DNA from: a virus
Taxonomy: Duplodnaviria; Heunggongvirae; Uroviricota; Caudoviricetes
Strand: one strand, 5' to 3'
DNA length: 27,110 bases
Virus record (IMG/VR): IMGVR_UViG_2579778745_000003
Coordinates: 1 to 27,110 of that record
Shown here: piece by piece, positions 14,631-17,001 of the stretch
Layout of the letters: each line of letters opens with the position of its first letter
How positions within the stretch are numbered: position 1 is the stretch's first letter
Notes under the pieces: generated by a model
Told to the model about the DNA's origin: nothing
Databases searched by the model: none
What the model saw: the letters and a program-made list of their open reading frames with translations, nothing else
Translations under genes and position numbers: made by a program

Positions 14631-14647
14631 AAATTTATTAGAGCATT
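14631..14647 (-). promoter_or_regulatory. C1 repressor operator Op51-like: AATGCTCTAATAAATTT on the - strand, 16 of 17 matches
   Basis: 17-mer read directly at the head of the c4-icd-ant unit. Confidence 0.75.
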
Positions 14648-14743
14648 GTTTGTTTAATAAACGCACAATTGGATCTAATAACCTCTTTTTTTTAAAGGCG
14701 AAAATATGTACCCTAAATGAGTTATAAGGCAGGCGAGGTTATA

Positions 14744-15235
14744 ATGAGAAAACTATTACTACCGTTATTATTTATGGCTGGGACTGTTAATGCAGCATCA
14801 AGCGTAAAGGAGATTTGTACCGATTATACGAAATACCTTGGGCACGTTTACGGATTTGCTGTCAGTGAAGACGAATCCATGCGCAAGAAGTTACTGTCAG
14901 ATATGAAGCGCCTTAAACTTTCTGAAGCGATGGTGCAGCAGGAACTGTATAAAGTCTCAACCAACGCAAATGCTAAATACCAATATTCTCGCCTATTAAA
15001 CCCCGATGCAAATGAGATCAATCGAAGCACTTTCGATTATATGGTAAAGGCATGCGAAACCGCTCCTGATTTTGCTATCCCTAGCTGGGGTGTGCTGGTG
15101 GCGAGCAATGCCGTTAATAAAGAAGATGTTGGAAGAAATGGCATTGACTCAATCAGAAATGCCCCAGGAATGCGCCATCAAAACGTGCAGGGTACGCTTG
15201 AAGAACGAGCCAGGGGGCCGGGTGTAGCTCCATAA
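14744..15235 (+). CDS. Secreted protein of unknown function, 163 aa from ATG 14744 (ORF track start 14717); C-terminus carries a motif shared with Sit
   Basis: Signal peptide MRKLLLPLLFMAGTVNA-AS; GAGG RBS 6 nt upstream of 14744; AT-rich codon usage. Confidence 0.7.
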   Translation: MRKLLLPLLFMAGTVNAASSVKEICTDYTKYLGHVYGFAVSEDESMRKKLLSDMKRLKLSEAMVQQELYKVSTNANAKYQYSRLLNPDANEINRSTFDYMVKACETAPDFAIPSWGVLVASNAVNKEDVGRNGIDSIRNAPGMRHQNVQGTLEERARGPGVAP

Positions 15236-15323
15236 TTTAATGAATAATATTAAATTCTCTGGGCATAGTGGATCTAACAATATGGACTATGCCTATAATA
15301 TCTAAAACAAAAAGGATAAAAAT

Positions 15324-15830
15324 ATGAAATTATATAAGTCATTGTATAGCTTTTTATTAATGTCCTCTTTTCTGCCATTATCAGCAATGGCAGGTTCTAC
15401 CGTTTGGACGGTAGGAGGTGAGCAAGGGTGGAGAGAAATCTCTGCAACCAATGACGATGGTTATACAATTAACTTTTCTTGTGATGCTGGAGCAAGGGAA
15501 GGTTCCGAAGATCATATAGCTGGAAGAAATTTGTATGTAAGTGGAGGGAAAGAGAATGCTGATTTTTCTACACGCGACACAATTTCTCGTAAAGCTGATG
15601 TAATTACCTTAATTGTTGGTCCGGATAGCTTTAATATTGGTACGCAAAACACTGCTCCAAATCGTAGGGAATGGTATTCTTTTTGGAAGTCAGCGTCAGC
15701 CACAAAAGAAAAAAACATGGATGTATATATCGGATCGCGTCGAATTACATCATTCTCTCTTGATGGAATTTCAAGTATTTACAAGGAAGCTAAAAATGAT
15801 GGATGTTTAAAGCAAGATGACGGTGAATAA
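15324..15830 (+). CDS. Secreted protein with two Cys, unknown function, 168 aa
   Basis: Signal peptide MKLYKSLYSFLLMSSFLPLSAMA-GS; AAGGA RBS. Confidence 0.7.
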   Translation: MKLYKSLYSFLLMSSFLPLSAMAGSTVWTVGGEQGWREISATNDDGYTINFSCDAGAREGSEDHIAGRNLYVSGGKENADFSTRDTISRKADVITLIVGPDSFNIGTQNTAPNRREWYSFWKSASATKEKNMDVYIGSRRITSFSLDGISSIYKEAKNDGCLKQDDGE

Positions 15831-17001
15831 AGTGAAGGATATTAAAAAACTTGCACTTGGCTCAGTAAGCGATCTCTATAATAGAGATTCAAATATTACC
15901 TGGCGTGATAATTTAAGTAAAATCAAAATCGCAGGATATACATCGGCAAGTGATTTATTAAAATCAGAATATGCTTCTAATAATTTGGTTAGACAGTTGG
16001 CAGAACTGCAAAAAAACGCAATCATTCCATCGTATAGAGAACATATGGCAAACTTGCAAGAACAGTTAAGAATAGGGCGGCTAGCTCAAGAACAAATAGC
16101 AAGATTGAATTTGCAATCGTTACTTAGTGATTCTGTTAAAAAACAGCTTGCGAACATGACGAGCTTGAGAAGAATAAATAGCAAGCATCGTGAATTTCTT
16201 GAAATTCTACAGAAACAGGCCAAGGTTTATCCCCCGCATGATGCAAATAAATACATTCAAATGCTAAGGAAGCAGGCAGAAATTGCTATGCCGTTACGAA
16301 ACCAGTTCGAGATGCTTAATAAGCAAGCTGGTTTAAATAACATGCAAGCAATACTTAATGAATTGCGACAAAATGTAAGTCATAAGATAGATTTAAACAA
16401 TGAAATAAAAGAATCATTAAAACAATATACCCTAGCGCAAAAGGCTTCATTACATCAAATAATGGAGCAAAGTCTTTCATCAATTGCACAGGCTTATGTC
16501 GAAGGTGCTATTGAAACATCTCACAACGAAAGTGATGTTCAAGACAAAGGATTAAATAAATCCAGTTCGACGTTCATTGATTCATTTAAGTCGCTCCCTC
16601 ACCCGCTTCAGTTTATTATTATGTGGCTTTTAACAGAAGTGGTGCTTGGCGCTATTGCTGATTATGCAAAAGAACAAATCTTATCGCAAATACACAAGAC
16701 AGAATCATATTCTGTATCCCTATATGAGGATGCACCAATATCAAAACAAAAATTAATTAAAGAAAACACAGAAATTAAGTGGGAAGATCTCAATGGTTTT
16801 AGGTTTATAACTGGTGATAACGTAAGATTACATGTCAGTCCTTCTTTAAATAGTGAAGTGATTGAATGCATTGGCAAAAACACAATTGTTGCTATTTTAG
16901 ATAAGAAAGATCGTCAATGGCTTTACGTGCAGGTTAAATCAGGGGATGAGTTTATTACTGGTTGGATTACACGAACATACACAAAGCCTCTTAAGGCTTG
17001 A
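15817..17001 (+). CDS. Coiled-coil protein with one hydrophobic segment and a C-terminal bacterial SH3 (SH3b)-like domain, 394 aa
   Basis: Repeated LxKQA heptad-like segments; hydrophobic LQFIIMWLLTEVVLGAIA; C-terminus ...GWITRTY resembles SH3b; overlaps the previous gene by 14 nt. Confidence 0.65.
   Translation: MTVNKVKDIKKLALGSVSDLYNRDSNITWRDNLSKIKIAGYTSASDLLKSEYASNNLVRQLAELQKNAIIPSYREHMANLQEQLRIGRLAQEQIARLNLQSLLSDSVKKQLANMTSLRRINSKHREFLEILQKQAKVYPPHDANKYIQMLRKQAEIAMPLRNQFEMLNKQAGLNNMQAILNELRQNVSHKIDLNNEIKESLKQYTLAQKASLHQIMEQSLSSIAQAYVEGAIETSHNESDVQDKGLNKSSSTFIDSFKSLPHPLQFIIMWLLTEVVLGAIADYAKEQILSQIHKTESYSVSLYEDAPISKQKLIKENTEIKWEDLNGFRFITGDNVRLHVSPSLNSEVIECIGKNTIVAILDKKDRQWLYVQVKSGDEFITGWITRTYTKPLKA

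Follow-up and report, generated by a model that had tools for sequence, protein, structure and literature searches.

A long-form SimA protein of P1-like phage-plasmids carries a conserved Sit-like peptide that suggests mimicry in superinfection exclusion

Several phages encode envelope proteins that block related genomes by way of the incoming tape measure. Imm of T4 binds that phage's tape-measure protein (bioRxiv 10.64898/2026.03.06.709160), the action of HK97 gp15 is tied to the incoming phage's tail (PMC3594210), and TP-J34 Ltp is reported to target the tape-measure protein (Bebeacua 2013). All three are membrane proteins or lipoproteins that bind the tape measure or depend on it, and no report credits any of them with a copied stretch of tape-measure sequence. 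Here we describe ORF-A, the opening gene of the variable sim locus in a P1-like (Punavirus) phage-plasmid, which was studied in a stretch of 27,110 nucleotides (nt) corresponding to positions 1 to 27,110 of the IMG/VR record IMGVR_UViG_2579778745_000003 (hereafter, the window). The C-terminal tail of its product resembles a segment of Sit, which is encoded further 3' in the window and serves as the tape measure (PMC9024508). ORF-A is likened to Imm, gp15, and Ltp through this shared peptide only; unlike them, it is predicted to be a soluble secreted protein, and its sequence is unrelated to theirs.

In P1, the corresponding cassette position holds simA-simB-simC, the superimmunity or superinfection-exclusion operon, whereas the window holds ORF-A, ORF-B, and ORF-C. 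P1 SimA (P1_gp043) is, like ORF-A, the product of the first sim operon gene between c4 and pmgC, but it has neither the helical domain nor the Sit-like tail of ORF-A. SimC is encoded in the same operon as SimA; both carry signal peptides, and both would be expected to act in the periplasm. SimB and SimC are replaced in the window by the YfjT-like ORF-B and the SH3-domain protein ORF-C. Mimicry by short linear motifs is familiar from envelope import, where colicins carry TolB and TonB boxes. These are likewise short conserved peptides on a disordered region that could compete for a binding site, and the analogy is one of mechanism only. The SimA segment showed no resemblance in sequence to the Tol and Ton boxes that are known. 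Envelope exclusion proteins linked to the tape measure are known; new here would be a link through a shared, self-derived peptide. Literature searches returned no report of similarity between SimA and Sit, and no solved structures were found for Sit or SimA-like proteins.

ORF-A, a long form of SimA with a Sit-like tail

The core of the shared segment in ORF-A aligns with Sit residues 930-951, and the stretch GMRxxxVQGTLEERARGxG is identical at 15 of 19 positions; nine of these 15 identical residues are encoded by different synonymous codons. The Smith-Waterman score was 90, against 37.7±5.2 and a maximum of 65 among 2000 shuffles (Gumbel p about 2e-6), and in a BLASTP comparison of ORF-A with all six-frame open reading frames of the window, Sit was the only non-self match (E=1e-6). 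At the family level, the profiles phrog_3933 and phrog_2533, to which ORF-A and Sit respectively belong, cross-match in both directions (E 1e-7 to 2e-4), and hhalign comparison of a 21-member SimA-like alignment with an 11-member Sit alignment gave a probability of 96.4% (E=1.1e-9) over 39 columns. The length of the match depends on the allele and ranges from 22 to 45 amino acids (aa). An earlier reading of the window from its letters alone (the sequence-only reading) had proposed that the end of ORF-A copies a Sit peptide and that the matching codons differ synonymously; both statements are borne out, as the peptides are present as described and the match is statistically significant. The same reading had named a common low-complexity segment as the explanation that would undo this comparison. 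That possibility is excluded: of 1.84 billion representative proteins searched with a 48-column profile made from the segment, nine matched at E<=0.001, all of them Sit-type proteins, SimA-type proteins, or fragments of either, so that two families only carry it. Homology searching with a 129-aa Sit segment gave only frameshifted fragments, and a search with full-length Sit gave only near-identical proteins among the 120 best matches listed.

On the Sit side, the segment lies beyond the SLT lytic transglycosylase domain. The core of motif 1 (NGRGMRREVVQGTLEERARGKG, 22109-22174) stands within ...VNDLVNKFMNGRGMRREVVQGTLEERARGKGTAT..., and eleven aligned Sit lineages (from E. coli, Salmonella, S. 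arizonae, Klebsiella aerogenes, Cronobacter, Pantoea, and metagenomic sources) share the consensus ...TGLxFxPxxxP...GGxxDKxG...KFxNxxGMRxxVVQGTLxxRAxGxGTxTxxGN. The K, G-M-R, G, R-A, G, and G of this stretch are invariant in 11 of 11, including the roughly 40%-identical Pantoea protein. In a twelfth lineage, L160, which was read separately, GMR, G, and R-A are kept and S-K-G stands in place of G-x-G. Across 77 E. coli-type loci the segment is almost invariant, and motif conservation extends, as the sequence-only reading had asked, both to Sit homologs and to the proteins at the sim position of other P1-like elements. That reading had also proposed that the ORF-A tail combines two Sit motifs. 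Both peptides are indeed present, but the match of motif 2 to ORF-A alone is not significant (E=0.14) and is credible only because motif 2 partially duplicates, in a tandem-like fashion, the N-terminal half of motif 1. Motif 2 belongs to an insertion of about 60 aa (window 22199-22380) that the alignment shows for E. coli P1-type Sit proteins only. Since motif 1 itself reads NAPGMRHQ or NSRGMRHE in the Sit of Salmonella, Klebsiella, and Pantoea, the two-motif appearance of ORF-A is best accounted for by an ancestral N(A/S)(P/R)GMRHQ that has been retained. Two allelic forms of motif 2, RNSPGMRKNN and INARGMRSNN, are in circulation. Two clearly different allelic types also occur in the SLT domain (window 21422-22000, aa ~700-890), and the type in the window groups with Cronobacter phage JK004, an S. 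arizonae element, and lineage L077 and not with P1; this grouping across elements points to mosaic exchange inside sit.

ORF-A is the long form of P1 SimA and not, as the sequence-only reading had taken it, a novel cassette gene. It matches phrog_3933, whose NCBI name is "simA domain protein," at E=2.4e-113 (protein positions 10-171 of a 172-aa form against profile positions 1-162 of 213), and it is 96-98% identical to P0001 and P0003. Its position is that of the sim locus in annotated P1 and vB_EcoM-Ro157c2YLVW: divergent from c4/icd/ant and 5' of pmgC-tub-pmgB-sit. Translation could begin at the ATG at 14744 or at an upstream ATG at 14717, which gives the 172-aa form, and ends at the stop codon 15233-15235; a GAGG Shine-Dalgarno sequence lies 7 nt 5' of 14744, and an equivalent methionine starts the homologs. 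The 52-aa P1 SimA (MSYKAGEVIMRKLLLPLLFMAGTVNAASSVKEICTDYTKYLGHVYAFAINDY) is identical to the first ~45 residues of ORF-A, signal peptide included, and there the match stops. P1 simA (L001 8718-8876; compare window 14717-14883) is a 5' remnant with the signal peptide and about 25 aa of a gene encoding 163-250 aa. What is annotated in P1 as a "putative superimmunity accessory function" is accordingly a truncated gene, and the similarity to Sit is invisible in P1 itself because this remnant has no tail. Other elements encode SimA forms of 176-250 aa, and one lineage, L160, holds a complete full-length simA-simB-simC operon, in which a 179-aa motif-bearing SimA is followed by homologs of SimB (59% identity) and SimC (44% identity). 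In a plasmid collection, 267 records carried a simA gene or remnant: 84 had most of the 215-aa form, a further set matched residues 1-161 like the window allele, and ~150 had only a 48-aa P1-type remnant, the last figure being an estimate from identity bands and listed rows.

ORF-A does not belong to the Sit family, as only about 36-41 residues align with Sit (phrog_2533) and no SLT domain is present, nor to the SimC family, to which it has no similarity and whose members are separate genes. Assignment as a PTP-like phytase (PF14566) was rejected, because the match reached 25.2 bits against a cut-off of 27, covered a partial profile, and was accompanied by neither a C-x5-R near the conserved cysteines nor a fold match.

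The secretion proposed by the sequence-only reading agrees with a predicted Sec-type signal peptide; together with its V-N-A site and two invariant cysteines, it is consistent with a periplasmic location of ORF-A. AlphaFold2 (AF2) modeled the helical domain with a predicted local distance difference test (pLDDT) score of 88-97 across ten-residue blocks. This domain is a confidently modeled orphan, and comparison with known lysozyme and transglycosylase inhibitors gave no sequence or fold similarity. The protein ends in ...IDSIRNAPGMRHQNVQGTLEERARGPGVAP, within the longer stretch ...NGIDSIRNAPGMRHQNVQGTLEERARGPGVAP. The tail element N-x-x-G-M-R-x-Q hardly varies in the SimA family, with a mean pairwise identity of 0.78 against 0.73 in the helical domain, 0.47 in the preceding linker, and 0.67 in the C-terminal half (class i members); it is thus a conserved island in a flexible tail, conserved like a folded domain. 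In class i proteins it is followed by V-(Q/E)-G-(T/S)-L-x-x-R-A-x-G-x-G, often with T-x-x-x-x-G-N next, and in longer family members the Sit-like stretch covers about 40-48 aa, as far as G-x-G-T-x-x-x-x-G-N. Class ii proteins have N-x-x-GMR-x-Q only, the remainder being replaced by a Cys-containing helical module.

Selection on the shared peptide and its possible role

Comparison of each SimA tail with the Sit of its own element in six lineages gave 13-18 identical residues out of 27, of which 9-12 are encoded by different codons. Nonsynonymous (dN) and synonymous (dS) divergence between the two copies was estimated by the Nei-Gojobori method on the 22-codon core, which is a short sample. The values for dS, dN, and dN/dS were 1.62, 0.20, and 0.12 in the window; 1.68, 0.23, and 0.13 in L002; 2.12, 0.36, and 0.17 in L005; and 1.31, 0.35, and 0.26 in L077. 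In L079 and L004, dS was saturated, so that dN (0.30 and 0.39, respectively) gives no defined ratio. The sequence-only reading had argued for conservation of the peptide over a recent DNA copy, with dN/dS as the check, and the ratios of 0.12-0.26 where finite, at a dS from about 1.6 in the window to saturated, agree with it. A recent DNA copy or gene conversion is excluded by the synonymous divergence (dS 1.3 to saturated) in all six lineages. The pattern is consistent with two copies that separated long ago and with purifying selection that keeps the peptide in both.

Each class i lineage's tail is most like its own Sit. Over seven class i lineages, the summed identity of cognate SimA-Sit pairs was 115, the maximum attainable, against a permutation mean of 105.6; 16 of 5040 permutations reached the cognate sum (p about 0.003), and BLOSUM scoring agreed. 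The N-x-x-GMR half alone gave no significant co-variation (p=0.16, eight lineages). Old partial gene-conversion events may lie behind the co-variation. The correspondence can be followed in a 94-kb phage-plasmid contig of Candidatus Pantoea alvi, where the SimA tail reads NAPGMRHQAVKGSMAERARGDGT and Sit reads NAPGMRHQVATGSMADRAYGMGT: both have G-S-M-A where the E. coli pair reads G-T-L-E, and the SimA-like gene lies more than 12 kb from sit in a different neighborhood. In lineages L005 and L160, SimA ends the motif with G-x-G-V and Sit has V at the same position (G-P-G-V and S-K-G-V, respectively), whereas most others read G-x-G-T. In this distant Pantoea relative, the neighborhood of the SimA-like gene comprises Rz/Rz1-like lysis genes upstream and methyltransferase and helicase genes downstream, and the SimA-like gene is followed by that of a different small secreted protein.

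These comparisons suggest that a secreted SimA, bearing a selectively maintained copy of a Sit segment on its flexible tail, may block incoming phages by imitating that segment. Mimicry-based interference by the SimA tail is, in our judgment, the best explanation of the observations as a whole, although we hold it tentatively. In the lysogen, SimA would reside in the periplasm after export. On contraction of the tail of a related phage, Sit would be expelled into this compartment with its C-terminal part leading, and its N-x-x-G-M-R...G-T-L-x-x-R-A-x-G-x-G segment would have to engage a partner, either a host envelope component or a phage tail-tip or hub protein. The resident SimA tail, presenting the same peptide in excess, could then occupy this partner or plug the site that Sit vacates; alternatively, it could bind Sit itself. 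Cell-wall passage or channel formation would be disturbed, which would contribute to exclusion. The more specific proposal that full-length SimA is a periplasmic mimic whose tail, as a co-evolving copy of a docking segment, competes for or plugs the docking site of Sit is possible, and we give it less credence than mimicry in general. A decoy or exclusion role for ORF-A is plausible: membership in the sim operon, the conserved island in a flexible tail, and the co-variation with the cognate Sit favor it indirectly.

Several observations weigh against such a role. SimC is reportedly the characterized exclusion factor of P1, and its sequence has no GMR motif. P1 reportedly excludes although its SimA is truncated, and the simA gene is dispensable, because more than half of the P1-like plasmids, by the estimate given above, keep only the first 48 aa. 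Class ii proteins retain no more of the segment than N-x-x-GMR-x-Q, and the window allele breaks off at a mosaic junction immediately behind the motif. The co-variation set comprises seven lineages, which are phylogenetically non-independent. Furthermore, an AF2 model of the C-terminal 420 aa of Sit (seven-sequence alignment) had a mean pLDDT of 43.7 and is uninformative on the role of the segment.

In an alternative to mimicry, the segment would be a generic envelope-anchoring peptide, with a ligand such as peptidoglycan or some abundant component of the periplasm or membrane. By means of it, Sit and SimA would localize independently and without competition, and activity would reside in the helical domain or in partners such as ORF-B or SimB/SimC. 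The Sit segment directly follows a peptidoglycan-cleaving SLT domain, a second secreted protein nearly always accompanies SimA-like proteins, class ii retains the short N-x-x-GMR-x-Q only, and the helical domain is conserved to the same degree as the motif. A generic peptide would, however, be expected in other secreted proteins, and only two families carry it among the 1.84 billion representatives. A constant host ligand also requires no co-variation with the cognate Sit, although differences between hosts could mimic such co-variation. We consider this shared-ligand explanation unlikely, though it fares best among the alternatives to mimicry.

The mosaic structure of the locus raises the question of whether the peptide is an evolutionary relic, left by an ancient fusion of a 3' fragment of sit to a gene for a secreted protein, or by the reverse event, and now a neutral linker or structural element with no functional link to Sit. 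The sim region is one of eight hypervariable regions of P1-like phage-plasmids (variable region 4; PMC9603915), and simA is often truncated. Flanking DNA is 94-98% identical to P1, and homology to P1 is lost inside ORF-A at ~14883 and returns at ~17103; homology to vB_EcoM-Ro157c2YLVW extends to 15223 and returns at 17095. The 215-aa Ro157c2YLVW allele continues after ...RGPG with TNSPMGNLSPEELQEY, and its homology to ORF-A ends exactly at 15223, the last codon of the shared segment (G-P-G), after which ORF-A adds only three residues (VAP). The end of the motif in ORF-A is thus a recombination or mosaic junction, and the C-terminal ~50 profile positions of phrog_3933 are missing from ORF-A because of it. 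A neutral relic is nevertheless hard to reconcile with 13-18 of 27 identical residues in six lineages at saturated synonymous sites, with a motif more conserved than the rest of the tail, with its persistence despite the separation of the gene from sit in the Pantoea element, and with the cognate co-variation. We regard such an origin without function as quite unlikely.

A different division of labor would make the SimA tail a recognition handle that holds a co-encoded partner (ORF-B or SimB/SimC) inactive until incoming Sit displaces the tail or is captured, with the partner as the effector. An ORF-B-type gene follows the SimA-like gene in most lineages, and SimB/SimC-type genes take its place in some (L045, L160), so that secreted proteins of one type or the other consistently follow SimA. 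SimC is reportedly an exclusion factor in P1, and co-variation with Sit fits this arrangement equally well. Yet SimC reportedly works in P1 beside a truncated SimA, and unrelated families (YfjT-like, SimB/SimC) would all need to recognize one peptide, which makes the arrangement improbable in our view. The least probable reading is direct inhibition of Sit, in which the tail would mimic an intramolecular element docking on the SLT domain or the C-terminal hub-binding region and thereby block transglycosylase activity or oligomerization: the position of the Sit segment between the SLT domain and a conserved C-terminal region, the direct binding of tape-measure proteins by the precedents, and the co-variation expected if the contact is Sit itself speak for it, but the AF2 model of the C-terminal 420 aa of Sit had no confident packing of the segment on SLT (pLDDT <50), and the helical domain resembles no known lysozyme or transglycosylase inhibitor.

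The sim locus and neighboring genes

Along the plus strand, the window carries repL, kilA, ant1, and icd (all on the minus strand), c4, the variable cassette, pmgC, tub, pmgB, and sit (Table 1). The sim genes of P1-like elements are non-essential (PMC10695390). Searches of ORF-A, ORF-B, ORF-C, SimB, and SimC matched no PADLOC or NCBIfam family. In lineages other than that of the window, SimA is likewise found paired with a YfjT-family secreted protein resembling ORF-B. The Pfam SH3_3 score of ORF-C is 26 bits against a cut-off of 27, and an amidase PHROG weakly matches the same SH3_3-like stretch. Its DNA is 86% identical to a gene for an "SH3 domain-containing protein" on E. coli plasmid LR890336, and its start overlaps the end of ORF-B by 14 nt.

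Table 1. Positions of the features discussed, in window coordinates unless another contig is named
Feature	Position	Strand	Description
ORF-A	14744..15235	+	Long form within the SimA family, 163 aa; opens the variable sim locus
Signal peptide of ORF-A	14744..14794	+	Predicted, Sec type, MRKLLLPLLFMAGTVNA; cleavage after V-N-A, then ASS; from sequence, conserved in family; AF2 pLDDT <50
Helical domain of ORF-A	14798..15127	+	All-helical, globular, aa 19-128; invariant C25 and C104
C-terminal tail of ORF-A	15128..15232	+	Flexible, aa 129-163; bears the Sit-like segment; AF2 pLDDT 48-70
Shared-segment core in ORF-A	15158..15223	+	NAPGMRHQNVQGTLEERARGPG
sit	19322..22684	+	Tape-measure / injection transglycosylase, 1120 aa; phrog_2533 full-length; P1 annotation
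SLT domain of Sit	21533..21850	+	Lytic transglycosylase, aa 738-843; Pfam PF01464, 53.8 bits, E=1.7e-14
Post-SLT conserved segment of Sit	22061..22198	+	Motif 1 and flanks, KIGNAVGVNDLVNKFMNGRGMRREVVQGTLEERARGKGTATAAGNV
Motif 2 of Sit	22283..22339	+	GIDGLFDKLRNSPGMRKNN
C1 operator (Oc4-type), putative	14631..14647	-	AAATTTATTAGAGCA; divergent c4/simA control region just 5' of ORF-A
ORF-B	15324..15830	+	168 aa, signal peptide; YfjT-family / phrog_3429; PF27224 tags on orthologs
ORF-C	15817..17001	+	394 aa, C-terminal SH3_3-like domain; third cassette gene; phrog_7086
pmgC	17156-17722
Candidatus Pantoea alvi PSNIH6, 94,409-bp contig	L081/L082 10001-10531 (SimA-like); L083 3001-6372

The putative C1 operator aligns with the annotated Oc4 and PsimA region of P1, and its function is transferred from the P1 annotation. 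A 12-mer, TGGATCTAA(T/C)AA, with a Dam GATC site occurs both before ORF-A (14670-14681) and before ORF-B (15269-15280) and may be part of similar promoters for the two genes. Directly 3' of the ORF-A stop codon lies an imperfect inverted repeat (15250-15305) with 20-nt arms that are 75% complementary across a 16-nt gap; its core is GGCATAGT...ACTATGCC, and no T-run follows it. In a distant P1-like metagenomic contig (L076, 6851-8038), pmgC directly follows bplB with neither immI (c4/icd/ant) nor sim between them, and the immI-sim block accordingly behaves as an insertable module.

Meaning for genome delivery and exclusion in P1-like elements

How DNA from P1-type contractile tails passes across the periplasm and the inner membrane is poorly understood, and so is the block that sim imposes. 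The shared peptide offers a handle of ~25-45 residues on this problem: it predicts where escape mutations should fall and supplies a pull-down peptide for the partner. The comparison further suggests that the laboratory reference P1 carries a decayed version of a three-gene system. Even if mimicry is not confirmed, the annotation of simA is corrected and a conserved segment of Sit is defined. If the proposal is true, SimA would exclude by means of a motif copied from the tape measure itself, the first such case among exclusion proteins, and Sit ~915-960 would be a functional contact for the delivery of the P1 genome. Self-derived peptide decoys would then constitute a new principle of phage-phage exclusion, and their existence would help account for the recombination hot spot at sim in P1-like phage-plasmids, themselves vehicles for the spread of resistance genes among Enterobacteriaceae.

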